From an uncultured Planctomycetota bacterium (GTDB lineage Bacteria > Planctomycetota > Planctomycetia > Isosphaerales > Isosphaeraceae): 64,000 nt of DNA. The DNA lies in contig CAWJTV010000011.1 in the NCBI GenBank assembly GCA_963845755.1, positions 1,344,001 to 1,408,000 of the forward strand, read 5' to 3'. Below are positions 16,691 to 64,000 of the stretch, one piece after another. Position 1 is the first letter of the stretch, and every line of letters starts with the position of its first letter. The notes below the pieces were generated by a model. It was not told the origin of the DNA, ran no database searches, and worked only from the letters and a program-made list of their open reading frames with translations. Both the position numbers and the translations under genes were made by a program.

Positions 16691-16732
16691 AAAGACCTTC
16701 CGAGACAGTCTCTGATCAAAGGAGAATCGCCG

Positions 16733-41978: not shown

Positions 41979-42190
41979 GGAAAGCGGTCGCTTTGATGCT
42001 GAAAGTTGACAAGGACCCCCAGAGCGGTGTCCGCGCTTTCAGCCTCGTCGATAACGCGACCTTCCTGGCCCGGTACGACCGCCAGGTGGCCGACGTGTTC
42101 CTCGCGCAGACCGCGGCATCCCTCCCACGCGGACTCAGGGGGGACATTCGGTCCGACTTGACGGGCATGCGGGCCGAGGCGACTTATGAA
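41979..42190 (+). pseudogene. Gene fragment resembling the helical C-terminus of the upstream ECF extension
   Basis: KAVALMLKV...FLARYDRQVADVF resembles WRAVALHPRL...LLSRYDREVAAALF; no start codon or N-terminal part. Confidence 0.45.
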
Positions 42191-45100
42191 TAGATATCGC
42201 AGGAAATGCAGTATCGTCGGCCGGGGATACCGGGAACCGAGCGGCCACATCCGGGACAGGTCCCGGAGTCCGGCGCGGAGCGGGTCGGGGTGGTCCGGCC
42301 GGGGATGCTTCAACGCGCGGGGCAGGAGCCGGCGGCGGCGGGGATGGCGCCGGTGGCCGCGACGGGCCTGGGACCGTGGGGGCAGGTCTGACGGGGAGGG
42401 GCGGTGAAGGCATTGCCGGCGGCCGAGGCGGGGCCAACGGCGCGGGACGTTGCGGCGCCGCCGGCGGAGGAGCGGTTGCCGTCGCCGAGGCGGCCGTCCG
42501 CACGGTCACGACGATCGACTCGATCGAATGCGATTCATCCGGTCGCATCTCGGTCACCGTCCCCGAAGTCACGTCCTCTCTCTTGATCTTCCCGTCAAGG
42601 AACCGGTATCGGTAGGCCACCGGGGCGGCGCCTCGGGCATAGATCGTGGCGGCCCGCGTATTGCTGCCGATACTGACCGGCTCGACTCCCAGGTTGACGG
42701 TCCGGGATTCTCCGCCGCCATAACAGACCTCGAGCCAGGCCTTGCGAGCGATGCGCTCGGCCAGGGCTAGCATCAGGCCCAGGGCCAGGCCCAGCAGGAT
42801 CGCACCCAGGACGCGACCTCCGGCATCGCCGCCGGGCATTCCGCACAGCGCCAGCGTCGCCCCGAGGAACGCCAGGGCTCCGGCTGCCCCGCCCACGGCC
42901 CCGCCGATCATCCCGCGGTCGGAGGCGCAGGTTGGGTACGAAGAAGGCGAGGACCAGCCCCGCCAGCGAGCCGAGGAGGGACCAGCCCAGGACGCGGAAG
43001 AGCACCTCACCGGCCGGAGTACCCGGGGCCACCTGGTAAAGGAGCTGCCCGGCCACCCCGCCGGCCAGGCCGGCGACCAGGCCGCCGAGCCAGCCCCACA
43101 CCGCGCCGCTTGCCGGCAGCCAGCCCTGGCGCAGATACACATGCTGTCCGGCACAGAGTGCCATCGAGATCATCGCCGTGATCACGGCGGTCCAGGCGGC
43201 GATCGCCGCCAGGAGCCGGAGGGAGCTCCCCACATCGAACGTCTCTTGAGATTGTACGCCTTTGAGCACGGGCGGCGGCGAGATCGCGGGAAGGTCTCGG
43301 GCCGCCTGGGCCGCCGCCAAGGGCGGCGGTGTTGCCGACGCGGGGGATCCAGAGGTGCCACGGCCAGGGCTACGGCCGCCGGGGGCGCGGGCGGCGGCAG
43401 CGACTCCGCGGCCGGGGGCACCGGTGGCTGGCTGGCGATCTTGATGCGTGCGATCTCCCGGCTCACCTCGGGCAATAACTCCGCGAAGGCCCCCGGCTTC
43501 CGCGCGGCTTGCCCGAGGTCGAAGACCGCGCCGCGCGCCTTGGCTTGCAAGGGCTCGAAGACGGGTCGGAACTGGTTGCGAATCACGAGATGAAGCTGGT
43601 CGATCCGGGCTCGATCAAGGAGGTCGGCCATCTGCTCGAGCGACCGGACCTCCAGGTCCGGAATGTGTGGACCGGCGTCGGTGATCAGGATCAGCGCCCG
43701 GCTGGCGTCGTCCCGGAACGACTGGCGGGCCGCCAGCAAGAGAGCATCGAGGCTGCTCTCCGGGATGTCGCCTCCACCGAAAGCGACCAGGCTCTTGCCG
43801 ACCTCCTCGCCGAACGCTCGGTAGTCCTTGGTAAAGACCTCATTACCGATGTGGAGCAATTGCGGCGCGAGATCGAGTGGCTTCGGTGCGAAGAAGCCGA
43901 ACACGGGATGCATGGCCGGCGCCGCGCCGGCGGTGGCCGGGAAGAACCACGGCCTTCTTGGCTGGCTTCATGATCATCAGGTGGTCGCGAAACCCCGTCA
44001 GGCCGATCCGAATGTCCATCTTGCGCTGTTCCAGTTCCCTGGCGAACTCGATGATGCCGTCGCGAATCCCTTCGATGGCCCAGGTCATGCTGGAGGTCAC
44101 GTCCAGGACGAACATGACGTCGACTTTCAGGGGAGCCGACTTGGTGGGGTTGACCGTCAGGTCCAGGCGGCTGAACGCCTTCGGGGGATCCGTCGCGCCG
44201 GGCAGACCATCGGGGCCGGTGGCGGTCACGGACACCGGCTGCGTTCCGACCGAAGCCTCTGCCGTCGCCTGGACCTCGATCTCGCCCTGAGTCGCGTCTT
44301 CCGGCAGTTTGAGCCGCGTGGCGGTCACACCGGCCGGCAAATTGCCGAGCTCCACGTCGACCGGACCGCGGAACTGGTCTCGCGCGACGATCACACCGAA
44401 ACTGTTCTTGCTCGCCTGGTCCACGACCACGCCGGGCGAGACGCTCAGCCGCAATCCCGGGGGTAGTGTCGGACGCGCGTCGATCCTGAGGCTCAACCGG
44501 CTGGCCGCCGTCGGAGGTTCGGTCGCTCCCGGCAGCCGGACGGGGCCGGTCGCGGTCACGGGCAGCGCCTTCGTCCCGACGGGTGCCGACGCATCGGCCT
44601 GGAGCCGGATCTCGCCCGATGTTGCTTCCGGCGACAGGCTCAGCGCATTGGCGGATACGCCCTCCGGGAGCCCTCCCACCTCGACCGTGACCGGACCGCG
44701 GAAGTAGTCCCGCGCGATGACGACTCCGATACGGTTCTCGCCGCCTTGCGGCAAGACGACTTCCGGCGAGACGTTCATCCGCAGCCCCGGCGGGTTTGGC
44801 TGGGCCGCTCGGATGTTCAGTCGGAGACTCGCCGCGGCGGAGCACACGTCGGGTCGTGGAGGGCTTTCTGCCTCCAGGGCGATCTCGCTCGACCCGACCG
44901 TCGAGTCGGCCGCGGCTTCCACCTCCACGTCCGTCTCGCCTCGATCTGCGGGGATGGTGACCGGGGCGATCACGACACCTTCCGGAGGATGAACGGCCTT
45001 CAATGTAACGGGCCCGACCCATCCCTCACGAGCGACCTTGACCCCGAAGCGACCCTTCCCCCCCTGATAGACCTCGAGCCACGGCGACGTAGCCAGGCGC

Positions 45101-45261
45101 AGCGGTGGAATCGAGCGCACGGCCGGCGACGAAGGTCGCAAGACCCTCCAGAGTGCCTCTCCGAAGATGAGGGCGCCGAAGAGACCTCCCAATGCCCCGT
45201 ACAGCCCGAAAAGCCATGGTTTCGGGAGCGTGCGACGCAACCAATCGTTCAAGCCGTTCAT
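42184..45261 (-). CDS. Large membrane protein: TM helix, three Ig-like repeats, vWA, TM bundle, FHA-like region, Pro-rich linker, C-terminal zinc ribbon; frameshifted
   Basis: Three LRL.VSP...V.Q.G.N..GV..ARD.F.GPV repeats; vWA DVMFVLDVTSSM, GLTGFRD, GGGDIPESSLDAL, LITDA; end CPGCGRSVPGIPGRRYCISCDIYS*. Confidence 0.78.
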
Positions 45262-45411
45262 GGGATTCGACCGCTCCGCAGCAAGGACCCGTCGCAAATT
45301 GCCGGTATCAGGAGATCCACAAATGCCCCGGACTGCTGGATAACTTGCGGGCTGATTCTTCCGCGCCGTGGCCGCCTCGCGATCCTGGTCCCACGGCGAC
45401 GGTGCGCGGAC

Positions 45412-46809
45412 TCAAAAAGAAAGGTCGCAGAGGATACAGTAGCGTTGGCCCGGGGGCACCGGCTTCCGGCAGCTTGGACAGAGAGTCGCTCCGTCTGGGG
45501 CGGTGGTTGGTGCCGAGACGGGTGCGCTCGCCGCGGCCGGCGCCGCCGGCCGCAGCGGTGCCGTCGGGGATGTTGTCGAAGCCGGGGCAGGCCTCGGCAA
45601 CGTCACCGCGGGCACGGGCTTGGGGACGGGAGGGGTCGTCGGGGCTGTGGGTTTCGGCGCCGGGGCGACCGGAGGCTTCAACGGCGGGGCGACCGGAGGC
45701 TTCAACGGCGGGGCGACCGGGGGCTTCAACGGCGGGGCGACCGGGGGGGGCTTCGGCGCCGGGGTGGTCATCGGTGGCGGTGGCGCGGGGGCGGTCATCG
45801 GTGGCGGTGGCGCGGGGGCGGCCATCGGTGGCGCCGGTCGCGGTAATGGCGGTGTGGGCAGCGACACGGGTGGGGGGGCTGACGCGGCGGTCGCGGTCGC
45901 GGGTATCGGGGGAGCCATCCCGGCCGTCGCCGCGGCTTCACTGGACCGGTGGTGTCGCTCGCTGAACCGGATCGAGTTCATCCCGAGCCGGATGACGTCA
46001 CCGTCGTTGAGCAGGACCCGGCCGTCGATCCGCATGTTGTTGACTCGAGTCCCCTGACGGCTCTGGTTATCCTCGAGGGCGAACCGGCCGTCGGGCTGGC
46101 GAGTGATCCGTGCGTGTACCTGCTCCACGTCCGTGTCGCTGCGAGCCATGAAGGGCAAGGTTGCGTATTCGGCACTTCCCAGGATCGTTTGGGACTCGGA
46201 CAGGATGAGCTGGCGGCCGGGCCGATAGCCGTCGAGCACGGTCAACCAGGCAGCCTTGAAGACCACCTTGACCAGCCCGATCAGGATGCCGATACACATC
46301 CCCAGGATGACGAATGCAGTGGCCCGGCTGCTCATCCCCGAGCTCGACGCGATCAGCGCCACGATCGGATCGAACAGGAATCCGCCGACCAGGCCGCCGA
46401 TGGCCCCGCCGATCAAGCCGTTGCGGAGCTTGGCCGGCGATCGCTCGTACAAGCCCTCGACAACGCCGATTCCCGCCCCCATGATCATCCAGCCGAAGGC
46501 GCACGGCAACCGGAAGGAGCTGAACAGGATATCGCCCAGGAAGCCGCCGACGGCCCCTCCGACCCCTCCCGCGATCAAGCCGGGGACGACGCGCTTGATC
46601 TGTTGCTTCCACTGGCCGTTGGCCATCCCGGCGACCAGGTTCAGTCCCGCGCCGATGGCGCCTCCGACCAGGGCACACATCACGATGACACCGGTGCGGC
46701 CTCCCTCCGCGCCGCTCCGGCGGGTCAGGAACTCCGAGACCATCCATCCCAGGAACGCCGACCATCCGCCGATGATCGCGCTATAGTAAATGAGCCGGTT
46801 CAGGGACAT
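45412..46809 (-). CDS. Multi-pass membrane protein with FHA domain, Pro-rich linker and C-terminal zinc ribbon
   Basis: About 6 Gly-rich TM helices; HARI...DNQSRQGTRVNN...LNDGDVIRLG (FHA); CPSC...RYCILCD. Confidence 0.85.
   Translation of the reverse strand: MSLNRLIYYSAIIGGWSAFLGWMVSEFLTRRSGAEGGRTGVIVMCALVGGAIGAGLNLVAGMANGQWKQQIKRVVPGLIAGGVGGAVGGFLGDILFSSFRLPCAFGWMIMGAGIGVVEGLYERSPAKLRNGLIGGAIGGLVGGFLFDPIVALIASSSGMSSRATAFVILGMCIGILIGLVKVVFKAAWLTVLDGYRPGRQLILSESQTILGSAEYATLPFMARSDTDVEQVHARITRQPDGRFALEDNQSRQGTRVNNMRIDGRVLLNDGDVIRLGMNSIRFSERHHRSSEAAATAGMAPPIPATATAASAPPPVSLPTPPLPRPAPPMAAPAPPPPMTAPAPPPPMTTPAPKPPPVAPPLKPPVAPPLKPPVAPPLKPPVAPAPKPTAPTTPPVPKPVPAVTLPRPAPASTTSPTAPLRPAAPAAASAPVSAPTTAPDGATLCPSCRKPVPPGQRYCILCDLSF
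45661..45833 (-). repeat. Coding tandem repeats: 24 bp (KPPVAPPL, about 4 copies) and 27 bp (PAPPPPMTA-like, about 2-3 copies)
   Basis: CGGGGCGACCGG(A/G)GGCTTCAACGG repeats and GGTCATCGGTGGCGGTGGCGCGGGGGC repeats. Confidence 0.85.
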
Positions 46810-46964
46810 GCCTACCTCGTTTCTTACAGGCTGTTTCCGAAAGGGGACTGGTTCCGAGTCTTCGAGGTGCCTGTCCCCGTCGGGAAACAGCTCCTTACGC
46901 GAGTGGCGACGGTTCTCGATGCCGTCACGCCGGTCAAGCCGTATTCCACGGTCGCTCGGCGGCT

Positions 46965-48563
46965 TCAGTGAGTCAAGTCGCCCGGCTGGATCTCGATGGT
47001 CGCGTGGATATCTACTCCATCAGGGGACAATCGGGCAGAGACGTCGCGCCGACCCTCCACGCGCTGTCCCGGAACGACGAGCCAGTTCACCTGGGTATAG
47101 CCGGCGGTCGCGGCGGCGGCGACGGGCATCGCGGCCGTATGTCCGCCGGCGAGGGCCAGGCCCTCGGGGAGCGTAAGCGTGACCGACTGCCCCGCGCGGG
47201 GGTTGCGCACCAGGGCCGAGACCCAGAACGGCTTTCCCGATCGGAACGGGCCGCGGGGCACGAGCGAGAGTTGGACGTCGGGCGGCTGGACCCTCAGCGT
47301 CTGCCGTTCGGTGACCGTGCCGGGCTCGAGCGCGGCCTGGACCTCGGCATCCCCGATCAATCCCGGCGCGATCTCGACGAGCCAGCTCAATTGCGTATAC
47401 GCGCCCGAGCCTTCCACCGGCTGCGAGAGCGATTCGGGACGACGCGCCGTCAGGCCGGCCGGCAGCGTGATCTGGACCGTTTGGCCGCGGTGGGGGTTGT
47501 TCACCAGCGCGACCAGCCAGAACGACGAGCCCGCCCGGATCGGGCCGCCGGCCGTCAGGCTCAACCGGGCGTTCCGGGTCGCCGTGCTCGAGATCGTCCC
47601 CAGGCCGTAGGAGAACCCCAACGCCCGGGTGTGGCCCGGCTCGAGCGCCGTCGTTGCGTAGTAGAGTCCCGCCGCCGTGTCGTTGCCGAAAGGCATGTGC
47701 CGATCGTAGTTCCACGCGGCGTTCTCCCCTGGCCAGTGCGAGAGCAAGAGCTCGCCCGGACGCTCCTCCCCCTCGGCAGGGACCAGGTTGATGTTGACGA
47801 TCACGCCGGGACTCGCAGGGATGGGCCGCTCCAGCGACTGGACGAAGTCGGGTACCTCGCTGCCCTCGACGACCAGAGGGCCGGTGACGAGCCCGTCGCG
47901 GCCCGGCACGATGAACGGGACGCCGTCGTTGTCGCCGATCAACGTATCCAGCATCGCGCGAAGGCCCACCTGACGGGTCGTCACGCCCGTGTTCCGCAGC
48001 TCGTAGGTCACTCGGAGCGTGTCCATGCGCTGGGAGACATCGCCGGCGACGAGCCGAAGCGTCTGACGGACCAGGATGTCCCGGAACGACCACGCCATGA
48101 CGATCGCACCGTCGGCCTCGGTATGCCAGGGTTCGACGGTCTCACCCTCGGAATCGCCGAAAATGGGCGCCCGGCCGTCGACCATCAGCCGCGTGTTGTT
48201 CGTCTGCCCGTCCGGGCTGTATGTGAGTCGTTTATCGTCGTCGGACGGATCGTCCGGATTACCCGTCAGGCAGCTCAGGCCGAACCGGCCGTCAGGCGTC
48301 CGTTTCACGATCACCCGGGGAGTCGGGTCGACCACGCGAGCGGGCGGCGGTGGTGGAGGGGGTGGCGGTGGAGGGGGAGGCGCGAGGGCGACGTCCGGTT
48401 CCGCTTGCGGAGCCGGCGGGGGCGGTGGAGTTCCCGAATCCATCAGATAGACGACGCCAAGGACGACCGTCAGCGCGACCGCGACAATCCCATCGGCCAT
48501 GAACCGCCACGAGGACGGTCGCGCGGTCGCCGGGTCGTTGATGTCGTCTGCCGTCGTCGTCAT
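46965..48563 (-). CDS. Membrane-anchored beta-rich protein with poly-Pro linker and two C-terminal Ig-like repeats
   Basis: Intact 532-aa ORF; signal anchor; QVGLRAMLDTLIGDNDGVPF; two repeats L.L...GP.R.G..FW..ALV.NP..GQ.V..TLP.GL...YTQ..WLV. Confidence 0.8.
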   Translation of the reverse strand: MTTTADDINDPATARPSSWRFMADGIVAVALTVVLGVVYLMDSGTPPPPPAPQAEPDVALAPPPPPPPPPPPPPARVVDPTPRVIVKRTPDGRFGLSCLTGNPDDPSDDDKRLTYSPDGQTNNTRLMVDGRAPIFGDSEGETVEPWHTEADGAIVMAWSFRDILVRQTLRLVAGDVSQRMDTLRVTYELRNTGVTTRQVGLRAMLDTLIGDNDGVPFIVPGRDGLVTGPLVVEGSEVPDFVQSLERPIPASPGVIVNINLVPAEGEERPGELLLSHWPGENAAWNYDRHMPFGNDTAAGLYYATTALEPGHTRALGFSYGLGTISSTATRNARLSLTAGGPIRAGSSFWLVALVNNPHRGQTVQITLPAGLTARRPESLSQPVEGSGAYTQLSWLVEIAPGLIGDAEVQAALEPGTVTERQTLRVQPPDVQLSLVPRGPFRSGKPFWVSALVRNPRAGQSVTLTLPEGLALAGGHTAAMPVAAAATAGYTQVNWLVVPGQRVEGRRDVSARLSPDGVDIHATIEIQPGDLTH

Positions 48564-48616
48564 CGTGAGCCTCCGATCCCGCCCTTACTCCGCGCCCGCC
48601 GCGGTTCCCGGGAGGG

Positions 48617-51076
48617 TCAGCGCGCAATCTCGGTGTTAGAGACCATCTCGTCGAGGGTTCGGCGGAGGTCCACCTGGAAATTCACGAGAGCGCCGCTGCG
48701 CTCGGCAAACTGTGGCGACGCAGTCGTCGGTTCCAGCGAGTGGACTCGCCCGAGGTCGCGCTGGGCGAGCGCCGCGTTGCCCGTGAGATGGTGGTAGGCT
48801 CCGCGCAGGTACCAGGTTACGGAACTGGACGGATTGAGAAAAATCGCCTCGTCGAGGTCCTTGATCTTGAAGTTGGTCAGATTGTTCGCAATCAGGGCCG
48901 CGATCGCTTTGCTCACGATACGCTCCGAAACGACGGCATCCTGCTGCTGCCACCTGAGGTGGGGCGTGTCGAGCTTCAGGCCGGTTTCGCTGCCGATCAG
49001 CTTGCGGATCAAGTCCTCCAGGTTCTTGAGGTCCCGCTTGCCTCCCGAAGCGCGGCCATCCAGCACGAGCGCGGACGCGTCATTGTAGTAGGCACGCTCC
49101 AGGATCACGCCATTGGCCTCGGGGTAGTATGCGAGCTGATTGGAGAGGCGCTCGAGGAGCGCGCGCAGTGGGAAAACGGCGAACGTGCCGGCTCGCACTC
49201 GCACGGCGGCCGGCGGCGACAGATCGGGCCAGGCTTGGGCCGCGGCCTTGCCGGCGAGGGGGACCACGCCCTGGGCTTGCCCCTCATGGTCTTGACGGCC
49301 GGAGAGGACGAGGACGTTCTCTTCGTCGAAGATGCCCCGCTCGACCAATACCCCGTCGAGCGCCGGGTCGCGCACCACCAGTTTGCGAAGCTCGGCCACG
49401 AGGCGGTTCGGGCGTGACGTGATCTGTTTCACGACGGGGGCGCCTACCGTCTTGAGGAGCTCGTCCTCCTTCAGCCAGGCTTCGAGTCGCGCCTCGACGC
49501 TGCCCTGGGAACCCGCGATCGTCGCCCCTTGCAGGACCAGCTCGGGAGCCAGGTCAGGACCCTCGGCCGCGCGGAAGAAGAGGCGGTCGAGACTGGTTTC
49601 GTCGAATTCTGCGGCGATCTTCCCGCGAAGAACCCGGAGCGACCGATCGGTCGGGGTTGTTTTCAACCGGAAGGTAGGTGGGCCGCCGACCTTGCCTCGG
49701 GTTTTCTTGGCCAGGGCGGGCGTGAGTATGTCGGCGAGTCGCTCGGACTGCGCCGGACCCAACCACAGGCCTTCGAACGTCGTCTCACCCTGAGGGCCGA
49801 ACGTCAAGTCCTTAAGGAAGACGCCATCGAGCGCCGGATCGGCCGCGACGTTCGCCTGGAGGTCCCGCACGGGGTTGGGCAGCTCGGTCACGCCGTTCTG
49901 CGCGGCGTAATCCGGGGCCGGGGGCGGAAACAAGAGCCGACTCTCCTTCCGTAGCGGCCCGGTGACCGCATCCGAGCCGGAATCGCCAGCCCCCAGGATC
50001 ACGCCTTCGAACCGAAGCTGAAGTCCACCTCCCCGTTCCGGATAGATGAAGACGGCGCGGTCCAACCGGCAGTAGCGGAGCGCTTCAGTCGCCGTGTCGC
50101 GGTTCGAATCCGCGGCGAATCGCTGCTGAAGGCCGGAAAGCAGTGTCTTGCGCCAGGGCCCGACCACCATCGAGGCGACCGCGGTCGCCGGCTCGGCGGG
50201 CGGCTTGCCGCCGGGCCGAGCGTAGGCCGTCACGAACTCCGGGCGCGCGAGGAACGCCGCGGCCGCGGCGCGCTGATTCTCGTCGGCGAGCAAGCCGTCG
50301 AGCGTCAACAGTCCCTCGGCGTCGAACCGGGCGTCATAGAAGAGCAGGTCGTCGAGCTGTGACTCGTTCGCCAACCGCTGGAGCCTCCGGACCGGGTTCT
50401 CCTGGAAGGCGACCTCGCTGGCCGAGAGGTGGCCAAGAGCATCGGGGTGAACTCCCTGGGGGAGTGCGTATCCTTTGAGGCGATCGCGGATGCCGTCCGC
50501 AATCCGCCCCAGCCAGTCGTCGGCCTGGGTCTTGCGAGCGACGTATGCGCTCTGATTGATGCAGAGGCCCACCACCCGAAGTCGCCCATTCCTATCATAA
50601 TAGACGTCGTCGATCCGAGTTTGCTGGAATAAATCCGGCCGGACTTTCCGATCGGCATTCGCCTTGGCGAATTCGCGGCGAAGTCTCGGCAGCAAGTCGC
50701 TCCGGACCGGGAATACAATCAGGTTCGCTGCGCTTACGCCCCCGGGGATCTGGGCCTTCCAGGCGGGTGTGTCATCCAGCAACTGCCTGGCCTCGGCCTC
50801 GATCAAGCCCGCCTGCTCGGCTCGGTCGACCGTGCCTGCGAGTATCAGCGTCCCATCCTTCAGTTCGCCCGGCTGGACGAGGGCCCCGCGCAGCCCGTCC
50901 TTCGACTCGCAGGCCAACTTGAGACGCGCGACGATCTGCCGGACGGCGGCCGGGGCCGACGATGCGGCCGCGTCCTGCCCGGGCGCATCATGCTGCGGAC
51001 TGAGGAGCACCAGACCCGCAATGACGACGGCCCAGGCGGCTCGCAATCGGGATCGTCTACCGTTGATCATGGCCAT
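48617..51076 (-). CDS. Secreted protein with about 8 BON-like repeats and a C-terminal TPR
   Basis: GGAGG upstream; signal peptide; recurring (L/I)(D/E)...(F/Y)D..G.L.L.G units; LDEAIFLNPSSSVTWYLRG. Confidence 0.7.
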   Translation of the reverse strand: MAMINGRRSRLRAAWAVVIAGLVLLSPQHDAPGQDAAASSAPAAVRQIVARLKLACESKDGLRGALVQPGELKDGTLILAGTVDRAEQAGLIEAEARQLLDDTPAWKAQIPGGVSAANLIVFPVRSDLLPRLRREFAKANADRKVRPDLFQQTRIDDVYYDRNGRLRVVGLCINQSAYVARKTQADDWLGRIADGIRDRLKGYALPQGVHPDALGHLSASEVAFQENPVRRLQRLANESQLDDLLFYDARFDAEGLLTLDGLLADENQRAAAAAFLARPEFVTAYARPGGKPPAEPATAVASMVVGPWRKTLLSGLQQRFAADSNRDTATEALRYCRLDRAVFIYPERGGGLQLRFEGVILGAGDSGSDAVTGPLRKESRLLFPPPAPDYAAQNGVTELPNPVRDLQANVAADPALDGVFLKDLTFGPQGETTFEGLWLGPAQSERLADILTPALAKKTRGKVGGPPTFRLKTTPTDRSLRVLRGKIAAEFDETSLDRLFFRAAEGPDLAPELVLQGATIAGSQGSVEARLEAWLKEDELLKTVGAPVVKQITSRPNRLVAELRKLVVRDPALDGVLVERGIFDEENVLVLSGRQDHEGQAQGVVPLAGKAAAQAWPDLSPPAAVRVRAGTFAVFPLRALLERLSNQLAYYPEANGVILERAYYNDASALVLDGRASGGKRDLKNLEDLIRKLIGSETGLKLDTPHLRWQQQDAVVSERIVSKAIAALIANNLTNFKIKDLDEAIFLNPSSSVTWYLRGAYHHLTGNAALAQRDLGRVHSLEPTTASPQFAERSGALVNFQVDLRRTLDEMVSNTEIAR

Positions 51077-51108
51077 CCTCCGGGGAAGTTCGCGAGTGTG
51101 TCGCGTGC

Positions 51109-53116
51109 TCAGTTCGTGCGTAAAGCGCCCGAGAGCCGCGCGCCTGAGAACAGGTGGAAGAACAGGTGAAGTAACCCGGGTCCCGTTTCATTTGTATTTA
51201 TTAAATTTATAATATTCTTCAAAGTTAACATTGAAATCGAACCATGGGCAACCCGTTCGTGGGCCGTTATCGCTTCGTCCGGCCCGTCTTCCGGACCGGC
51301 CGGTGCGACGGATCCGGTCGATGATTCCGGCTCGGCCGTGGCGGCCGCTGGCTCGACCGGCGGGGCGTTCCCTTCCGTGAGGGCGTCGGCCGCTCCTGGC
51401 GGTTCCGGCTCCTCGGGGGATTCGGGGACGCGTTCGGGCTCCGACTCTCCGGATTCATCGGTGGGGAGCGTCGGCAGGCGCAGGACCAGGAGCGTACAAT
51501 CGTCGTTGACGATGGCGTCCTGATCGCGGAGCGCCTCGATCTCCTGTCGCCAGGTCTCCTGGTCAACGTCCCAGAGACGGCCCCAATCGGGGGGCGTCCC
51601 GGACTCGATCTCGACTAGCAGCCGCTGGGCCATCGCGTCGGTCGCGAAGACCAACAGATCGTCGGGTAGCAGGTCGCCCCGGGTCACGGCTGCCGGCGGC
51701 GTCGGTCGCATCGCTTTCGATTGATAGAGCAGGGGGGTCACGTTGAAGTCGGCCGATGCGCCGATCGGGAAGGCTGCGATCATGCGTCCGTCACGGATGT
51801 GGAACATGCAGATGTCGCCCACCACCCACGCCGTCCAGCCGATCGCGCCGGCCGGGTCATTTCCGTCTCGATCGACCGGGGGCGAATCGAGGCGGAAGCC
51901 CAGGAACGTGGCCGCGCCGCACGATCGATCGATCTTCAACTGGATCGACCACCGCTGTTCCGGATACCGGACCGCCTCGAACCAGGCCCGGCGCCGCTCC
52001 TGGATCCACGGATCGACCGCCGCCATGTCGTCGAGGGCCACTCGGCTGCGCGAGGAAGCTCTTCAAGAGGAGCTCTACCCAGAGCTTGGTGAAGATGCCG
52101 TCGCTGGCTCCGTCGGCCAGGGCGAGCACGCCTCCGGCCGCGTCCGGGGCGAAGCCGTCTTCCCACTCCTTTTCGTCATTGCCGCGCTTCGGCATCCAGA
52201 GCGCGCGGATCTCGAACCGGGGCGGCCCCGCCGGTTCGGGCGCGGGGATTTCGGGTGCCGGCTCGCTCTCCGGTGCCGGCTCGGGTCCGGGTTCGGCCGT
52301 CACCTGCACCGCGGACTCCTCGACTTCCGCGGGAGGCGGTTCCGGGACGGGCGGAGGCGGCGCCACGTGCGACCAGAGCCGACGGACGAACTGGCCGATG
52401 CCGCGCGCGGCGGAGAGCTTGTTGACGAACATCCAACGCGGTGGCGGAGTGCCCGGTTCGGCGGCTCCGTCGGTGGGGTAGGGACTGCTCATGGCCCAGA
52501 GGTCACCACAAGGGCTTTCGGGGACCGGAACGAACGCCGAGGAGGTGGCTCCGCGGCGGAATAAACAATGCACCATCACGACCCCGGGGATCAGGTCGTT
52601 CAGGGCCGCGACATCACCGCCGATCGGCCCATCGGACGTGTCGCCATCGGTGCAATGGACGATGATCGGCGGGGCCGCTCCGGGGTGCTCGGCGGTCCAG
52701 CGAGCGAGCAAGCGGCTCGTGTAGACCAGGGCCGCGTGCGCCGGGGCGTTGCCCGAGGGCTTGACCTCGATCCTCACAGGTCGGCGGTTCCCGTCCGAGG
52801 CCGTGATCGACCCGGCGAGCTCGCGGAGCGGAACGAGGAGGCGGTCGGGCCCCGAGCCCGGCAAGAGCGGGCGAAGCCGTTGCTTGCCGTCTGCCTTGGT
52901 GGAGTAGGCTAACACACCCAGCTCGAAGCACGTTGAATCGATCGCGGGCTCTCCCGCGAACCGGACCAGATCGTTGATGAGCCGGTCCACGGTCCGTTGC
53001 GCCGCGGCGATCTTGGTCGCCAACGGGCCCGTGTAGGCCGTGTCGCGCATCGAGTCCGAGGCCTGGATCAGGCAGATCAGGCAACCGGTTGCGAGGCGAG
53101 CTGGGACTTCGTCCAT
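51109..53116 (-). CDS. vWA (TerY-like, degenerate MIDAS) fused through a Pro/Glu linker to a PP2C-like phosphatase; frameshift near 52045
   Basis: CLICLIQASDSM, FELGVLAY, PPIIVHCTDG; then PKRGND..EWEDG, LALADGASDG..KLW, GAATFLG, VGDICMFH, FATDAMA, VNDDCTLL. Confidence 0.82.
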
Positions 53117-53193
53117 CGGGAGACCTCGTCGCTTCCCCGCATCGTGACACCCCCGAGCGGGCCGGGCAGGGTCTGCTCGGGGGACAGCCTGGC

Positions 53194-54129: not shown

Positions 54130-54214
54130 CTCAGGGGCTCCTCGGGGTTCGCTCGTTCGGACGGACGGAAGTCGAGGAAGGACCGGCCTTCCTCGGTCAC
54201 GATCGCTGTCGATA

Positions 54215-55573
54215 TCACGGTTCAGGGGCGACGAACAGGTTAGGGTGCTGCTGCACGACCTTCAGGAGACGGTCGATCCGGTCGATCAGGGTCCGCCCGC
54301 CGGCTTTCGGGTCGACGCTTCGGACGAGATCTTCCTTGTGGGCCTCGCAGATGTCGCGGAGCTTCCGGAGCGACGTGTCGGACCATTGTTTGATCTGATT
54401 GCGTTCGGTGTTGAATGCCAGGACGGCATCACTATACTTGGTCCCCTTGATCGGCGCGATATTCTTGTCTTCGGGGAGGTTGCGGGTCTCACCCATCGGC
54501 AATTTGAAATAATCGATCTGATCGCGCGGGAGGGTGTACTCGTTGTCCTTCGGGTCGCTGAGCGGGATACTCTTTTCATTTTTCAAGACGACCGTGACCT
54601 TGTTTCGCGGGACCGGCTCGTCGCCGTTTCCGCCGTTCAGGAGCACATCGTCGTCGAGCGGCTCCGGCTTGAGGTAATCGCGGCAGAGCTCCTGGGCCAG
54701 CCTCCGGGCCGATTTCACGAACGGGGGCGGTGGGTGGTTCTCGACGAGTTTCGCGATTTCTTCCAGATGTTCGTCGCGGCGGGATGACGGCTCCTGGAGC
54801 CTTTTGACAACCTTGGCCGCAAGGTCCCAGAGCGCCAGCCGCTCGTTGGCCTCCTGGAGGTGGCCGGCCGCGAAGGCCCCCTTTGCGGCCCGGTGGCCTT
54901 CCACGAAGTCGCGATAGAGGCCCGCGACGGCAGCGGCGCTGGACAGCGTGTCGTCCGATGTGCCCGGCGACCAGTGGTCGAGGGCCGCGTAAAGTTTGTC
55001 GAGGTCACCCCGCGGATGTCCGTTGTCGAGCTTGGTCCACGCCGACTCGGCCTCGGCGGAGGCACGCAGTTCGGCGTTGTAGAGGTCCTGATCCTTGTAG
55101 ACCTTGAGCAGTTTGTCGAGTCCTTCGAGGGCCTCCTTGCGCTGGCTCTCCGGCTTGTCGCGATCGCGCACGCCTTCGAGCGCGTCCTTGATGTTGTTCT
55201 CGAGCCCGGTGACACCGAGCCGCTTCTCCTCGATCATCTTTCGATCATGCCCCCGGTCGATCACATGGTCCCGCACGGCCGAGACCAGGCGCTGCTGCAA
55301 CCCGCTCGTGTCGCCCCCCGCCTTGCCGAAGCCGGGCAGTGGGGGATCGAGCCGGACGATCGTTGCGGCCACGTCGTCGGGCAGGTTGACGATCGCGTCG
55401 GCATCTTTCTTGATCTTCTCCCGAGTCTTCACCGCCCTGTCGTGTTCGGGATCGTCGGTTTTCCGCGTCGACGCCTGGGACCTCGTCAATACGTCATAGA
55501 GCCGCCGGCTTTCCAGCCACGCGGTCCAGAACAGCGGAGCACAGAGGATCAGCATCAATACGGTCTTTCGCAT
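54215..55573 (-). CDS. Hypothetical helical/coiled-coil protein with N-terminal signal or anchor
   Basis: Intact 452-aa ORF co-directional with the operon; MRKTVLMLILCAPLFWTAWL; charged helical body. Confidence 0.72.
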   Translation of the reverse strand: MRKTVLMLILCAPLFWTAWLESRRLYDVLTRSQASTRKTDDPEHDRAVKTREKIKKDADAIVNLPDDVAATIVRLDPPLPGFGKAGGDTSGLQQRLVSAVRDHVIDRGHDRKMIEEKRLGVTGLENNIKDALEGVRDRDKPESQRKEALEGLDKLLKVYKDQDLYNAELRASAEAESAWTKLDNGHPRGDLDKLYAALDHWSPGTSDDTLSSAAAVAGLYRDFVEGHRAAKGAFAAGHLQEANERLALWDLAAKVVKRLQEPSSRRDEHLEEIAKLVENHPPPPFVKSARRLAQELCRDYLKPEPLDDDVLLNGGNGDEPVPRNKVTVVLKNEKSIPLSDPKDNEYTLPRDQIDYFKLPMGETRNLPEDKNIAPIKGTKYSDAVLAFNTERNQIKQWSDTSLRKLRDICEAHKEDLVRSVDPKAGGRTLIDRIDRLLKVVQQHPNLFVAPEP

Positions 55574-55699
55574 CGCGGTCCCGCCGATTGCGTGGTTTCG
55601 CCGACGTCACGTCGGTCGATCGAGGGAGTCAGTGCGTCATACGATTCCCGATTGGGACCAGTCTATCCGGCGCGATCGCCGAACGCGCTCCGTCTTATC

Positions 55700-58600: not shown

Positions 58601-60258
58601 CGTCGGAGAGATCCTTGATCACGTCGGGGCCGGGCTCCCAGCCGGCCGAGCCCGACAGGGCGATGCAGGCGGCCAGTCCGACGAACCGGGGTTCGATCGC
58701 GGTCGACCGGGCCAGCCCGCGGAATCCGGCCGGATCCGGGCGCGGAGCAGCCAATGAAGTCGGGCCGGAAGGGCCGTACCCGCGGGTACGGACTGGGACC
58801 ACTCCCGCAGCAGGGCGCCTCGTTCGTCGGGAGACAGCGCCGCGGCGCCGGGAGTCGCCCCCACCACACCCATCAGCGTGACGAAATGCCCCGCGCGACG
58901 ATCGGCCGGGATCACCGACTTGAGCGCCTCCCACCCCTCGCGCCAGGCGCCGGCCGGACCCGACTGCGCCCGGGTGCGTACCTCGGCCAGGAGGTCGTCG
59001 AGGTGCTCGCTCAGCAACTCGGCGAACTCGTCCCGAATCCGAGGTTGGGCCCAGACCTTGCGCAACGCCTGCCACGCCCGGCCGCGGAGCTCGTCGTCGC
59101 GGAGCAGCCCTTCGCCGAACCGGTTCCGTCGCAGCTTCATCAGGCCGTCGGCATCCAGGGCCCCGGCCTTCAGCGCAACGGCCAGGGGACGGACCTGGAT
59201 CGCCTCGGCCAGCGAGGCCGGCGTCGCCCCGCCGGCAATCCGCGGGTCGCGCGACCAGAGGTCGCGGACCTCGTCCACGGCCTTCCAGTCCCCATCCGCG
59301 GCGAGTTTCAGCAGATCCTCCAGCGGCCAGCTTGCCTCGATCATCAGCTCGGGGCCGTAGGCATCCCGGAAGGTGTCCACGACGTAACCGCGGCGTCGCA
59401 GGCCATCGCTGTCCGCTTTCTCGAGGCCATTGCGCGCGTAACTTCCGATCACCCGGGCGACCTTGTTCTCGCGGAGCGACGAGTGCGGGGGCTCGTAGGT
59501 CGAGAACGGGAACGTGCCCGCGATCCGCGGCGGCAGCAATCGAGCCATCGCGTAGACCAGGAACGCGACGGCCCCCGGCTCGGCGAGGATGCAGACCCGC
59601 GTCCGGGTCCCGTTCGGCTCGTTGGCCCGGAGGAACCCGTGCAGCGCGGCCCGGATCCAGCGGCGGCGGGCCTCGAGATTCGACTCGACGCGGCCGGGAT
59701 AGATCGATCGGGCCACGCTCTGGTCGGCGGGTGCCGCGCCGGCGGAGAGGAAATTCGTCAGGGCGGCATCGTCGATCAGGGAGCCTTGCGGGAGATGGTC
59801 GATCGTCGGCAGGACCTTCGTCTCGCCCCGGGGGTATTCGTCCGTCATCCAGTCGGACGAACCCCAGGCGGTGACGGCCGAGAGCGTATCCAGGTTCGGG
59901 CAGGAGGAGGATCTGCGAGAGGAAACTGTGGGGACGGCCGACGGTATCCTCGGGCAGGTAGGTCGTGTGGACGAGCGCGACCCGACCCGACGGGCCGGGG
60001 ACCATCGCCAGCCGGCGCGGGGCCTGGTTGGTCGGCAGCGTGCCGCTCCTCATGTCCAGCGGCAGCTCGTAGGAGTCGAGTCGGATGCGCCCAATCGAAC
60101 GTCGCGGAGTCGGCCGCCCCCGGGCTGGCGGCGCGGACGCTGAACCCCTCCCGCCCCAGGACGCTGTCCTCCTTGAGGCAGTGCATGACCAGGAGCTGCT
60201 CGATCGGCCCCGATGGGGGCGGATCGCCGGTCGCGGTCGAGGAGTTCGCATTGGCCAT
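55700..60258 (-). CDS. GAP1-N2/GAP1-M-like protein, probably one ~1500-aa gene continuing into TM helix, coiled coil and WD40-like C-terminus; multiple frameshifts; 55700..56740 may be a separate gene
   Basis: GAGGTG before ATG 60258; EQLLVMHC...LGREGFSVRAASPG; YELP; YLPEDTVGRPHSFLSQ; LLPPRIAGTFPFSTYE; TM FVGGAVFGVLLALLL near 57680; LSCVALSPKGTILVTG and LGFSPDGRVLAA...IRLW. Confidence 0.65.
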
Positions 60259-60494
60259 CGGTTCACCTCGCGGCACGCCGCCGCCTGAGAGGCCGTCGAG
60301 AAATCGATTCAAAATTTAAAATTGAAAGATTGAAAATCATAGAAATTTTGACACGGTAGCGAGGCCTCCGGGTGATCTCGATCCGACGCGGGATTGTGGG
60401 AACGAGGATCCGCTGTGTCCACCGATACTCCCTTTCTGGGGAATCCGGTTCTCTTGCGACAGTCTCTCAAACTTTTAGAAACTAACCGAGAATC

Positions 60495-60558
60495 TTGTAG
60501 GGTGGGTGAAACCCACCAGGAAGTGTCCCGATTCTGGTGGGTTTCACCCACCCTACAA
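60495..60558. repeat. GTAG-type REP doublet (REPIN-like)
   Basis: TTGTAGGGTGGGTGAAACCCACCAG...CTGGTGGGTTTCACCCACCCTACAA inverted pair. Confidence 0.85.
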
Positions 60559-60741
60559 ACCCCGGATCCGCTTCTCGGACAGTTTCTTAGCAAAGCGACC
60601 GGGTATGGAGATTCGGCCCCTTCGGGGCGAGAGACAAGAATGCCGGTATCGATGCTACAGTCTCCATTTGGATTATGGAATTTTGAATCTGGAACCTTCT
60701 ATCCGAGACCTTCACGCCTTCTCGGACGACCGGGGCGCCTC

Positions 60742-63564
60742 TCACCAGTTGAGGAGGCGTTCGAGCCACGACCGGACTCGCGGCCCGGAGCGTGAGCCAT
60801 CCGGCGCGGGCGAGATTTCGATGCCTTCGTGCTGGCCCCGGCGGCGACATAGGGCCCGATCCGGAACGGCGGCCCGACCCGCCGGTCCCAGCCGAGGTCG
60901 ACCACGGGCCAGACGGTGACGTACAGCTTCCGGCACCCGGGCGGCAGCACGAAGGCGGTCCCTCCCTTGGCACGGCGGTGGGTGTCGGGGTCGAGATTGA
61001 GGGTCCCCCGGCGCGCGTCCTCGGGGCGCTCGAGGAATCGCGCCGTGTCGGTGGCGACCAGGCAGGTCCGGACGAGTCGCGACTGCGCCCAGGCCCAACG
61101 CGCGGTGACGGCCGTGCCGCCCGCGTCGGGGAGGAACATCGGATCGGCCGGACGGAGGACATCGCCTTGCTGAAGCCGCTGGTCGACCCACGCGGCGATC
61201 CGGTCGCGGTAGGGAGCGAACTCGGCCGCGTGGGCGACGAGCAGGGCCGGGCTCGGCCTCGGCGAGGAACGCCTCGGCCTGGCCGCCGCGGAGCGGCGGC
61301 CACCAGCCGCTCGACCTGTTCGCTCTTGGCGATCAGGGCCTCGATCTCGGCCCGCTGGCGGACCAGGCCGGGGTGATCGGCCAGCTTCGCGGTCGCGGGC
61401 CAGCCGCTTCACCGCGACGGCGTCGCCCCGCTTGAGCGCCTGTTCCAGCTCGGCGAAGGCCGCGATCCGCGCGACGGCCTCGGCATGGCGGGCGCGATGC
61501 TCGCGGGCGTCGTGGCAGTCGGCCAGGAGGGCGCTGATCCCAGGCGGCGACCCACCGGGCATCCTGCTCGTCCAGCGGCAGGCTGGCGGGGATCGCATCG
61601 AGGGCGCGGAGCAGGTCGCGGCGGCGGATCGCCAGCTCGCAACGGGCGGCGACGGCCGCAACGGTGGGCCAGGTGCCGTCGGCCCGGGCACGCTCGGCGG
61701 CGGCGGCGATCGCCAGGTCGGACGGGGTCGAGGCGGCCAGCGCCTGGTCGAGCGCCGCGGATGAGGCGAGCCGCTCCCGGGCCTGGCGGATCCGGTCGGC
61801 GAAGCTGTTGCCGTACCCCGGCGGCGAGCGCCTCGGCCGCATCGAGGACCGCCTGCTCGGAGCCCCGGCCCTGATCGGCCTCCTCGATCCGCCGCTTCAA
61901 CTCGACGAGCCGGGCCGCCCGGCCTTTGGCCGCCTGGAATCGGGCGCGGAACGCATCGGCCTCGCTGACAGCCATCGAGGACCGTCGCCGCCGGCGCCCC
62001 ACGCCTTGAGCAGTCGCCCGGTCGGCCGCCTCGTCCTCGCCCGTCGGGCAAGCCGCCAGCGCCGCGAGCGCCTGGACGCGCCGGCCGGCCGCTCGGCACG
62101 GTCGCGGTGCGGCTCGGCCTCGGGGTGGCCGCCCAGCGCGTCGAGGGCCTGCCAGGCCTCGCCGATCGCCTGCTCCGGGCCTCCCTTCCGGACGGCCTGG
62201 TCGAGCCGCTCCACGGCCGCGATCCGCTTCCGCCAGGTCTCGACCTTGGTCCGGACCGCGTCGCCCTCGGCGAGCCCCTGGAGCTCGCGCCCGCGCTGGT
62301 CCCAGAGCGCGACGAACGGGCCGACCCGACGGGTCGGACTGCTCGGCGCCGCCGCAGCTCGTCGAGGAGGGCGAGGGCCGTGCGGGCCACGCCGGCCCCT
62401 GGCCACCAGCGCCGGGTCGAGCCAGTCGTCGAGCAGCTCGGGGCGATACGCCGCGGCGATCTCCTTCAGCTTGCCCCCGCGCAGCTTCTCCTCGAACTGC
62501 TGGGCCTGGCCTGACCCGCTTGTCGGCCTCGTTGACCTTCGGGACCAGGTCGGGCGGGAACGTCTCGGAGGCGTACTTCCGGCTGGTCGCCAGCTCGTGG
62601 ATCTGCCGCCAGTCGCCCCCCTTGATCACCTCGCGGAGCGGACCGAAGATGTCGATGTCGAACGGGGGGACCTCGATCGAACGGCCCGTCGAGCGACTTC
62701 CGCAGCGCGGCCGACCATTCGCGGACCATCCGGTCCTTCGCGTTGTGCATCAGCTCCGGCCAGAGCGGCGAGCGGTCGGGGTCCTTGATGTCCCGCTCGG
62801 TGAACAGCAGGCTCTCCTCCTCGCTCTGGCCGATCATCCGGTGCCAGAGCGACAGGTCGTCGGCCACCGCCCGCAGCGAGATCAGGATCAGCCAGGCCGA
62901 GAAGTCGTCGATGGCCGGCGACAGGAGCTGGCCGATGCGGCCCGGGTGCTGGTAGGCGGGCAGGCCGTTCTCCCAGGCGACCCGGTCGGCGTCGTTGCCG
63001 GTGTCCATCGTCGGCACGAACATCCCGTCGTAATCGACGAGCACCAGCCGGTCGTCCCTCACCATGACGTTGCCATGCTGGAGGTCGCAATGCGCGATCT
63101 CGTGCGACCGCAGCTCGCAGATGAGCTTGATCCACTCGTGCGACATCTGCTTGATCGCCGCGCAGTCCTGCCGTTCCACCGCCTCGCGGAACCAGATGCC
63201 CAGCGTCTTCCCTTCGACCCATTCCATGCTCAGGACCGGCAGCCACTGGCCGTTGACCAGGATGCCCTCGGGATCGTAGCCGAAGTCGACCATGCACTTC
63301 GGCTTCGTCTGCTGGAGGTAGTCGTTGACCTTCTGGTAGCGCGACTTGCCGGTCGGCCTTGGGGGCGTTCATGAAGACCCGGACGGCCGTGGACCACGAG
63401 CTGTTGTATAGCCGGTAGACGATCGCGTTGGCCCCGGACCGGGGCCAGGGCCAGGGCTTGCCCGGCTTCAGCTCGACGGCGCAGTCCTTGAGCCTCGGGT
63501 CGCGGAAGGCGGCCTTCGGGTTCTGGATCACGCCGTTGTAATCGCCCGGACTGGGCCAAGCCAT
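60742..63564 (-). CDS. Ser/Thr protein kinase of the TerY-P-associated type with a long helical C-terminal region; frameshifted
   Basis: MAWPSPGDYNGVIQNP..AFRDPRL, PWPRSGANAIVY, TAVRVF, GILVNGQWLPVLSMEWVEG, HCDLQHGN, LVDYDGMFVP, YQHP, DDFS, LLF; ends SWLERLLNW*. Confidence 0.85.
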
Positions 63565-63592
63565 GGGAAAACTCGCGGCAACCGGTTCGAGG

Positions 63593-64000
63593 TCAATGCA
63601 ACACGCAATAACCGTGCATGTGGAGCAGCCAGAGCAAGGGCTCGATCATCCCGAACGGGGTGATCGTCCGTTGCGACAGGTCTTCGATGCCGAGCTCGGC
63701 CCCCTCGAGCCCGACGGCGCTCATGGGGAAGAACATGTAGCGACCGCCGAAGTTCTCCCGCAGCATCCGCTCGACGTTCCAGCCCGGGAACATCAGGGGC
63801 ATCGCCGCGGCGCAGAGCTGGGACCGCTCGTGGATCAGCGACAGGTCGACCTTCTGCGTCAGGGTCTTCCGCAAGTCGTTCACCAGCTCGATCGCCTGCG
63901 TGCCCATCGGGTTCTTGCTCACCACGCAGGTCCATCTTCGAGACACAGATGGCGATCGGCAGGTCGATCGGGATTTCCGAAGCCAGGCCCCGGATCGCGT
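63593..64000 (-). CDS. C-terminal part of a TRAFAC-class (DO-GTPase-like) GTPase; truncated by the window edge and frameshifted
   Basis: IDLPIAICVSKMD (G4-like), RYMFFPMSAVG (G5-like), ITPFGMIEPLLWLL terminal motif. The P-loop is not inside the window. Confidence 0.7.
   Translation of the reverse strand, partial: TRSGAWLRKSRSTCRSPSVSRRWTCVVSKNPMGTQAIELVNDLRKTLTQKVDLSLIHERSQLCAAAMPLMFPGWNVERMLRENFGGRYMFFPMSAVGLEGAELGIEDLSQRTITPFGMIEPLLWLLHMHGYCVLH

Follow-up and report, generated by a model that had tools for sequence, protein, structure and literature searches.

A planctomycete locus in which a predicted DO-GTPase/GAP1-N2 core is joined to a TerY-P-type kinase, vWA and phosphatase set and to membrane and exported proteins

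Two groups of described bacterial systems come closest to the locus analyzed here. The DO-GTPase/GAP1 'GTPase-centric' systems were defined by Kaur et al. (eLife 2020; PMC7159879) and are predicted conflict systems. In the third theme of that paper, GAP1-N2 neighbourhoods contain a kinase, a PP2C phosphatase and a standalone vWA protein, and the theme is given there as 'restricted to actinobacteria'. The passages of the paper that deal with these systems also describe GTPases with transmembrane (TM) segments or zinc ribbons and GAP1 proteins fused to TM segments, predict an action at the membrane, list a rapidly evolving FNIII-repeat protein for GAP1-N2 systems, and count planctomycetes among the GAP1-N2 carriers. 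The TerY-P triad makes up the second group. Its definition goes back to Anantharaman et al. 2012, and according to Gao et al. 2020, TerY-P-like triads work against phage as systems of their own (PMC11090510 and PMC7699616 quote both papers). We analyzed a 64,000-nucleotide stretch (the window, G000:C11:1344001-1408000) from the 14.27 Mb genome (49 contigs, ~64.5% G+C) of an uncultured soil planctomycete of the family Isosphaeraceae. Its minus strand carries a co-directional cluster of ten genes, in which a GTPase/GAP1-N2 core, a TerY-P-like kinase, vWA and phosphatase set and a group of membrane and exported proteins are found together.

The locus resembles the third theme of Kaur et al. in several respects. 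A DO-GTPase with TM segments and a zinc ribbon is paired with a GAP1 protein (N2 and M domains), this GAP1 is fused to a C-terminal TM segment and extracellular domains, and a kinase with an added β-rich domain, a PP2C phosphatase and a standalone vWA protein are linked to the pair. It differs from the theme in its host, which belongs to the Planctomycetota and not to the actinobacteria, in the position of the kinase gene between those of the GTPase and GAP1, and in the fusion of PP2C to a second, degenerate vWA. In addition, a WD40 propeller forms the end of its GAP1, profile searches detected no protein with FNIII repeats, and coiled-coil, multi-BON-like/TPR, β and TM-FHA-Zn-ribbon proteins are added. 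The same holds for the comparison with TerY-P: the TerY, PP2C and kinase proteins all match the PADLOC TerY-P models, whereas the kinase has neither the OB fold of the defence type nor the zinc ribbon of the classical type, its tail being made of helical repeats and a β-sandwich. The triad genes are also not adjacent, and they are embedded in a GTPase/GAP1 system.

From these comparisons, we read the locus as a planctomycete variant of the known, purely predicted third theme of GAP1-N2 systems and not as a new category, and planctomycete examples may already be present in the neighbourhood tables of Kaur et al. (PMC7159879). The original prediction, made from the sequence of the window, had stated that no experimental description of the combination was known. 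Full-text literature searches (GAP1-N2, DO-GTPase, TerY-P) indeed found no experimental study of a GAP1 system, while the combination itself had already been described computationally, in the third theme of PMC7159879. Our favoured interpretation, held with moderate confidence, is that the locus is a GAP1-N2-type DO-GTPase system with a TerY-P triad built into a membrane GTPase-GAP1 switch, extended into the envelope, and that it serves a conflict or defence role.

The order of the core genes is conserved in related loci of Planctomycetota, in line with the joint occurrence expected from the prediction. A pattern scan with one genome per species returned 8 loci, all of them from this phylum (Isosphaeraceae, Gemmatales and Gemmataceae). 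The five-gene core GTPase-kinase-GAP1-TerY-vWA/PP2C was kept in order in 6 of 6 loci with enough flanking sequence (G069, G029, G047, L025, L026 and L027), and G086 was left out of this count since its contig is too short. The GAP1 gene is not directly 3' of the GTPase gene, as the kinase gene intervenes in 6/6 loci, and both belong to the same co-directional cluster. Together with the GTPase and GAP1-N2 profile matches given below, this conservation supports the proposed merger of a GTPase/GAP1-N2 core with a TerY-P set. Three further GAP1-N2 loci (L029-L031) were found without kinase, TerY and PP2C.

The GTPase had been recognized from its C-terminus alone, and the motifs SKMD, SAVG and EPLLWLL are read directly at 63593-64000. 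When the contig was extended past position 64000 (L001, in which ~5793 corresponds to window ~65793), the gene was found to run on to ~65793, and the expected P-loop was present there. This upstream part contains the Walker A motif GIRSSGKTHW, the Walker B motif DFSGE (DFAGD in one orthologue) and a zinc ribbon, CPRC...CNVC, ahead of the P-loop. Four TM segments were predicted at 65778-65722, 65300-65244, 65177-65121 and 64709-64653, of which the first is signal-like. In the resulting architecture, two long coiled-coil loops lie between the four TM segments, and one zinc ribbon (not two) and the GTPase domain come after them. The four Cys columns of the ribbon are invariant across 58 aligned relatives, and the whole family numbers 370 representatives at 50% identity. 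The orthologues of L025 and G069 score 21.4 and 20.4 bits against PF19993 (DO-GTPase2), both under the cut-off of 27. Among the 58 aligned relatives, PF19993 is matched by 53 (best E 7e-13) and PF19975 by 13. A DPTQ-containing stretch is also common to this GTPase and to the GTPase of a neighbouring canonical GAP1-N2 system (E=0.003). Membership of the locus GTPase in the DO-GTPase2 family is thus supported at the level of profiles and motifs.

The giant protein encoded two genes further on had been assigned to GAP1-N2 and GAP1-M, and this assignment was borne out by the Pfam scores of its orthologues and by the annotation of its relatives. On the window pieces, GAP1-N2 scored 17.9 bits, GAP1-M 23.6 bits (Pfam, cut-off 24) and WD40 29.2 bits; the GAP1 values fall below the cut-off because frame breaks cut the domains. 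The intact orthologues gave 38.2, 39.8 and 31.5 bits for GAP1-N2 and 24.7 and 22.6 bits for GAP1-M, and a whole-genome search placed the window GAP1-M at 27.1 bits, above the cut-off, so that GAP1-M is borderline overall. In a large protein collection, PF20013 is already annotated on most of 38 GAP1 relatives, some of which bear the source name 'GTPase-associated protein 1, N-terminal domain type 2'. No GAP1-C model was among the Pfam matches of the general scans, in which the GAP1-C profile was not compared separately. A TM segment at window 57700-57644 (amino acids 842-860 in G069) makes GAP1 a membrane protein. The order of its parts is GAP1-N2, GAP1-M, a conserved helical region, the TM segment, a coiled coil and the WD40 propeller; the N2, M and helical parts are predicted to be cytoplasmic, and the coiled coil and propeller periplasmic. 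The protein is 883 amino acids long in L025 vs 1439-1506 amino acids elsewhere.

Other GAP1-N2 genes are present in the same genome. A second system, small and canonical, lies ~18-28 kb past the window end. Its GAP1 has 535 amino acids and scores 101.6 bits for GAP1-N2 and 57 bits for GAP1-M; it also includes a gene of DO-GTPase2 type (23.3 bits), and three uncharacterized genes lie downstream. Near it is a protein with two GYF_2 domains (86 bits), a planctomycete association that is mentioned in the text of Kaur et al. (PMC7159879). A third GAP1-N2 locus was found on contig C47.

All three PADLOC TerY-P models (TerY, STK_OB and PP2C) were matched at the locus, which bears out the kinase, vWA and phosphatase set described as TerY-P-like. 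The TerY vWA protein matched PADLOC TerY (PDLC02224) with 266.1 bits over model positions 3-275 of 277, and its metal site DxSxS is intact and reads DQSYS. It is the sole full-length TerY match in the genome; the second match is partial and falls on the vWA of the adjoining fusion (32.7 bits, positions 122-176). The PP2C model (PDLC02222) gave 25.2 and 27.6 bits on the window pieces and 85.9 bits on the intact 566-amino-acid orthologue of G047, whereas in Pfam neither PP2C nor SpoIIE was matched (E≤0.01) by the fusion in the window or by its orthologues. The vWA-PP2C protein is a single open reading frame in G047, G069 and L025. Its vWA metal site has QxSxS/T instead of DxSxS and the Thr is lost in 4 of 4 sequences, and is therefore degenerate, while the PP2C motifs DGxxDG, GD, TDA and NDDCT are kept. 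No TM segment was predicted in the kinase, the TerY protein or the fusion.

The kinase matched STK_OB with 128.7 bits for the window piece and 170.6 bits for an intact orthologue, the match being limited to model positions 1-268 of 562, which is the kinase part. The motifs HCDLQHGN and DYDG, from which a kinase had been called, are read directly in the window, and HGDLQHGN and DYD are invariant in 63 aligned long-tailed kinases. At the position of the β3 Lys, these 63 TerY-P-type kinases carry a near-invariant Arg (AxRVF), which is AVRVF at window ~63400. On the strand before β3, most long-tailed kinases have a Lys (VYK), and the subfamily of the locus has Arg there too. This long-tailed family comprises at least 401 proteins, many of them named from Pirellulales and Planctomycetaceae. 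The AlphaFold2 (AF2) model of the L025 kinase (predicted local distance difference test score, pLDDT, 88.2) contains the kinase domain, ~490 amino acids of helical repeats and a C-terminal β-sandwich (residues 796-898). When model residues ~10-330 only were compared with VIA-align, the fold aligned to DAPK, PKR and PknB at Z ~16; as modelled, the kinase has a Hanks-type fold. In the PDB, the sequence of the kinase domain found weak matches limited to the C-lobe (E≥0.015), from which the β3 residue could not be placed. The β-sandwich, which was not compared on its own, may have an OB-like relation.

Gene limits were set with orthologous proteins as guides (tblastn and frameshift-aware alignment), and they are collected in Table 1 with the other features. 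Stop-to-stop reading guided by the orthologues places the ten genes on the minus strand between window 42184 and ~65793, and this reading, together with the domain searches, agrees with the predicted run of ten genes and with their order. The cluster spans 23.6 kb in total and overruns the window end by 1.8 kb. From 42 kb to the window end and on the next 20 kb of the contig, which were read in the same way, the minus strand is an unbroken coding run in which the frame keeps shifting. The spacers between genes measure 28-155 nt, with the exception of the kinase-GAP1 spacer of 484 nt. A perfect hairpin with 25-nt arms lies inside this spacer and is a genome-wide repeat (core strings in 39-92 copies). 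Another palindromic repeat, with 33-nt arms, stands just 3' of gene 10, and its family (33-35-nt arms) recurs twice upstream of the GTPase gene, so that it brackets both ends of the locus; the genome contains 161-302 copies of its core strings. Both families look like elements of the repetitive extragenic palindromic (REP) or miniature inverted-repeat transposable element (MITE) type. The first gene below 42184 is on the opposite strand, and above the GTPase start there is ~1.5 kb of non-coding DNA with palindromic repeats.

Table 1. Positions of the cluster genes and of other features mentioned in the text (window coordinates unless a contig is given)
Feature	Position	Strand	Reading frame
Gene 1: DO-GTPase2-family GTPase (supported), TM/Zn-ribbon	~65793-63593	-	~4 frame breaks
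Gene 2: TerY-P-type Ser/Thr kinase, ~935 aa	63564-60742	-	~14-16 frame breaks
Gene 3: GAP1 giant protein (GAP1-N2, GAP1-M, TM, WD40)	60258-55700	-	~11 frame breaks
Gene 4: N-anchored helical/coiled-coil protein, 452 aa	55573-54215	-	single frame
Gene 5: TerY-like vWA protein, 311 aa	54129-53194	-	
Gene 6: degenerate-vWA::PP2C fusion	53197-51109	-	one frame break ~52042
Gene 7: secreted 819-aa protein, α-β-β-α-β modules and TPR	51076-48617	-	
Gene 8: N-anchored β protein, 532 aa	48563-46965	-	
Gene 9: Gly-zipper multi-TM/FHA/Pro-rich/Zn-ribbon protein, 465 aa	46809-45412	-	
Gene 10: TM/Ig x3/vWA/multi-TM/Pro-rich/Zn-ribbon protein	45297-42184	-	at least 3 frame breaks
Hairpin, 25-nt arms, in kinase-GAP1 spacer	60495-60558		
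Palindromic repeat, 33-nt arms, 3' of gene 10	41873-41951		
Same palindrome family, two copies upstream of GTPase gene	L001:6305-6538		
First gene below the cluster	38587-41643	+	
Second GAP1-N2 system (G000:C11:1422001-1440000)	L032:3630-10494	-	
Second GAP1-N2 system, continued	L032:734-2305	+	
Upstream neighbours (CHAT-domain protein, TPR proteins, two Hanks-type kinases), window-equivalent 68-78 kb	L001:8237-9103, 10732-11803, 12772-15432, 16086-18459		CHAT-domain gene frame-broken
FHA-GAF-SpoIIE (PP2C-type) phosphatase	33124-34884	-	
ECF (extracytoplasmic function) sigma factor	35299-35913	+	
Sulfatase piece	11952-12596		
Sulfatase piece	23926-25059		
DDE transposase	15020-16540		

The remaining genes of the cluster code mostly for proteins that are membrane-bound or exported according to TM and signal predictions, as had been claimed for an envelope-spanning part of the locus. 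The 452-amino-acid coiled-coil protein has an N-terminal hydrophobic segment and is kept in position in G069, G029, L025, L026 and L027 (32-43% identity). The 532-amino-acid β protein consists of a TM segment (amino acids 22-40), a Pro-rich linker and β-rich repeats; the ESM Atlas points to clusters of the CARDB/NPCBM_assoc type (score 0.94), which we take as a lead only. No Pfam family was matched by either protein. The 465-amino-acid protein of gene 9 has at least four glycine-zipper TM helices, a Pro-rich region and a terminal zinc ribbon, and the FHA domain proposed for it matched Pfam FHA with 43.5 bits. Gene 10 codes for an N-terminal TM segment, three Ig-like repeats, a vWA with DVTSS, more TM segments, an FHA-like stretch and a Pro-rich region; VWA_4 (24 bits) and RibLong (19-20 bits, cut-off 27) both stayed below their cut-offs. 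The terminal zinc ribbon predicted for this gene, CPGCG...CISC, was found in a further frame and ends exactly at 42184, where the prediction had placed the start of the locus, whereas the FHA domain predicted for the same gene was not confirmed: Pfam gave nothing at E≤5, and BLASTP against the 465-amino-acid FHA protein gave E=0.96. No family in NCBIfam was matched above the cut-off by any protein of the locus.

The 819-amino-acid protein has a signal peptide and belongs to a family of only 18 proteins in a collection of 5.8 billion proteins. Its AF2 model (pLDDT 84.8) shows about eight α-β-β-α-β modules and a C-terminal TPR region, and for this module no Pfam family was found at E≤0.01 in the protein or its orthologue. 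Foldseek returned weak matches (E 1e-3 to 3e-2) to the periplasmic domains of YscD, CdsD and PrgH, to DolP and OsmY, and to TPR modules. The secreted BON-like/TPR protein of the original prediction is therefore recovered at the level of the fold, and the resemblance to BON and ring-building domains is a likeness of the model and not a family membership. These matches bear on one alternative, namely that the locus is a phosphorylation-regulated trans-envelope scaffold or secretion-type ring, in which the 819-amino-acid protein would form rings like PrgH or YscD and the TM-FHA protein would be the cytoplasmic part of a split YscD-like component. Foldseek places the YscD, CdsD and PrgH periplasmic domains near the top of its list (E 1.5e-3 to 3e-2), and the FHA protein comes near the cut-off of Yop-YscD_cpl (32.8 vs 33.2 bits). 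However, the fold matches are weak, the α-β-β-α-β unit is common to BON domains that appear in the same list, profile searches found no secretion ATPase, secretin or export gate in the locus, and the system of G047 has no envelope module. We consider this alternative very unlikely.

Outside the core, the locus varies between relatives. The gene of the 819-amino-acid protein is found in 4 of 5 loci that reach far enough and is absent from G047, the β gene is present in G069, G029 and L026 and absent from L025 and G047, and the Ig-vWA gene is present, inverted, in G069 and was not found in the stretch of G029 that was examined. In G047, the whole envelope module is absent. Sequence identity to G069 is 79% for TerY, 78% for the kinase, 75% for the β protein, 67% for the cytoplasmic N-terminus of GAP1 and 64% for the GTPase, and it falls to 49-56% for the 819-amino-acid protein, 42% for the coiled-coil protein and 34% for the GAP1 propeller. 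Judging from these identities, the extracytoplasmic parts evolve fastest. Of 120 further genomes from the family, 7 have a GAP1 orthologue; among the 47 of high quality, the number is 3. Elsewhere in the phylum, a query with the GAP1 N-terminus found 0/400 genomes at E≤1e-8 and the kinase query 1/400 at E≤1e-20, in a search that scored 2-3 first-look candidates per genome and may have missed weak relatives. The single genome with a kinase match (G144, another planctomycete) has this long kinase type in a simple TerY-PP2C-kinase triad, without GTPase or GAP1. Within a single planctomycete family, the locus is well conserved. The envelope module is clade-specific and variable, and a patchy distribution of this kind is usual for accessory systems.

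Pathways in which threonine phosphorylation is read by FHA domains are formed by PpkA/PppA/Fha1 of the type VI secretion system and by PknB/PstP/FhaA/FhaB(FipA) of actinobacteria. The locus shares with them a Hanks-type kinase, a PP2C phosphatase, an FHA domain at the membrane and a vWA tied to the kinase, which we take as a functional analogy and not as membership; unlike them, it contains no type VI secretion or cell-division genes, and its matches to TagH and FhaB remain below the cut-off. By this analogy, the locus could be a signalling module for envelope stress or morphogenesis, in which the kinase/PP2C/FHA circuit would control surface or cell-wall assembly, aggregation or budding. The presence of a kinase, PP2C, FHA and membrane proteins together and their resemblance to such envelope pathways would fit this account, as would the sub-threshold matches of the TM-FHA protein to FhaB/FipA (NCBIfam, 40.5 bits), GltG and TagH and the periplasmic BON-like/TPR protein, since known envelope factors such as DolP and OsmY are BON proteins. 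It would also agree with the lack of a toxin domain, a kinase without OB fold, ordinary neighbouring genes, and a DO-GTPase beside psp envelope-stress operons, as noted in a passage of 10.1101/2020.09.24.301986. On the other hand, the distribution given above is too patchy for core morphogenesis, accessory genes vary between close relatives, and the three TerY-P components match models that were built from defence systems. Hence we regard envelope signalling as possible and clearly less probable than a role in conflict or defence.

The numerous frame breaks raise the question of intactness. Frameshift-aware alignment against orthologues found ~30 frame changes in 23.6 kb, and in five genes none. 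Two independent queries (G069 and G047) gave the same break sites in the kinase. After frame correction, the kinase was 78.2% identical to its G069 orthologue over 941 amino acids and GAP1 50.7% over 1465 matched residues, both with no in-frame stop, and the corrected genes overall showed 51-78% identity to their orthologues. Every cluster gene is in a single open frame in L025, which comes from another assembly. Genome completeness is 87.9%, and several relatives with few contigs reach 60-87%. Two sulfatase pieces elsewhere in the window match only model positions 1-107 and 1-121 of 301, that is, the first third of the model, as would be expected if other parts of this assembly have broken frames too.

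An independent soil-metagenome run (X1) provided near-identical contigs that cover parts of the region and leave most break sites uncovered. The sole indel reported for these contigs is one base fewer at 62508, where the alignment had predicted an extra base at ~62509; this is a single low-depth observation, and five substitutions within 40 bases relative to the window indicate a close relative. Another X1 contig (depth 4.65) joins window 45902 to 52451 and skips 6548 bases, with 14 foreign letters at the junction and a shorter side of 22 letters; the match may be due to chance or to foreign sequence, or the contig may come from a relative without the 819-amino-acid, β and FHA genes.

The frame breaks could also be real and the cluster a set of pseudogenes in decay. 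Their uneven spread, with ~14-16 in the kinase and none in five genes, would agree with decay, and only one break was checked against independent data. However, no in-frame stop was left after correction in the kinase or GAP1, the kinase break sites agreed between the two orthologue queries, the X1 contig is one base shorter at 62508, further window genes (the sulfatases) are cut as well in a genome with the completeness given above and few-contig relatives at 60-87%, and the L025 genes are all single-frame. We therefore reject decay as highly improbable. We conclude that the breaks are assembly indels, and the system is therefore probably intact in the organism.

The genes around the cluster are of mixed kinds. 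Upstream of it are a frame-broken gene for a CHAT-domain protein, genes for TPR proteins and two Hanks-type kinases, one with an anti-sigma zf-HC2 motif and one with a long TPR tail. About 7 kb below the locus, the FHA-GAF-SpoIIE phosphatase (SpoIIE 158.9 bits, FHA 76.4 bits) adjoins the ECF sigma factor gene and forms with it a separate phospho-signalling pair. A DDE transposase is also present in the window.

We favour a conflict or defence role because the distribution is patchy and accessory, the periphery varies and part of the locus is homologous to a proven anti-phage triad, and from these points we infer defence rather than envelope signalling. Several observations weigh against this interpretation. 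For GAP1 systems as such, a role in defence is so far no more than predicted. TerY-P kinases with experimentally demonstrated activity carry a C-terminal OB fold, which the locus kinase does not have, and neither an OB fold nor a zinc ribbon was found fused to its C-terminus. Its activity is not assured, because the near-invariant Arg replaces the canonical β3 Lys. The kinase gene is two genes apart from those of TerY and PP2C. No recognizable toxin or nuclease effector is present in the locus, and profile searches found no match to FNIII repeats in its proteins. The rest of the window, with sulfatases, TPR proteins, the ECF sigma factor and a methylase, is not a defence island. Finally, the frame breaks were compared directly with independent data at 1 of ~30 sites.

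If the locus does act in conflict or defence, the following sequence of events can be proposed. The fast-evolving extracytoplasmic parts (the GAP1 propeller, the coiled-coil protein and the BON/TPR protein) would register an event at the envelope, most likely a phage or another invader. GAP1 and the GTPase would carry the signal across the membrane and set the GTP state, which would license the kinase to write phosphothreonine. The membrane protein with the FHA domain would read these marks, TerY would act through its metal site as the adaptor for their assembly, and the output would occur at the membrane, possibly as permeabilization by the Gly-zipper helices, i.e., abortive infection. The PP2C fusion would reset the system. 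The strongest form of this proposal is a self-contained trans-envelope immune machine, in which a periplasmic array made of the GAP1 propeller, the coiled-coil protein and an oligomeric multi-BON/ring-like protein senses phage contact from outside, the GTPase and GAP1 gate the kinase, and a phospho-FHA-gated Gly-zipper pore acts as the abortive-infection effector. We consider this form speculative and rather unlikely; if true, it would be a kind of trans-envelope immunity that has not yet been demonstrated.

With this locus, the kinase/PP2C/vWA theme of GAP1-N2 systems extends beyond the actinobacteria. Bacterial conflict systems of the GAP1/DO-GTPase class are numerous and purely predicted, and the intact, single-frame orthologous locus L025 could be used for experiments. 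TerY-P is a proven anti-phage triad, and the locus may serve as a template for work on its trigger and its target. A putative relay is laid out here co-linearly, from candidate sensors through a transmembrane GAP1 and GTPase to the kinase, the phosphatase, the vWA adaptors and an FHA membrane protein.

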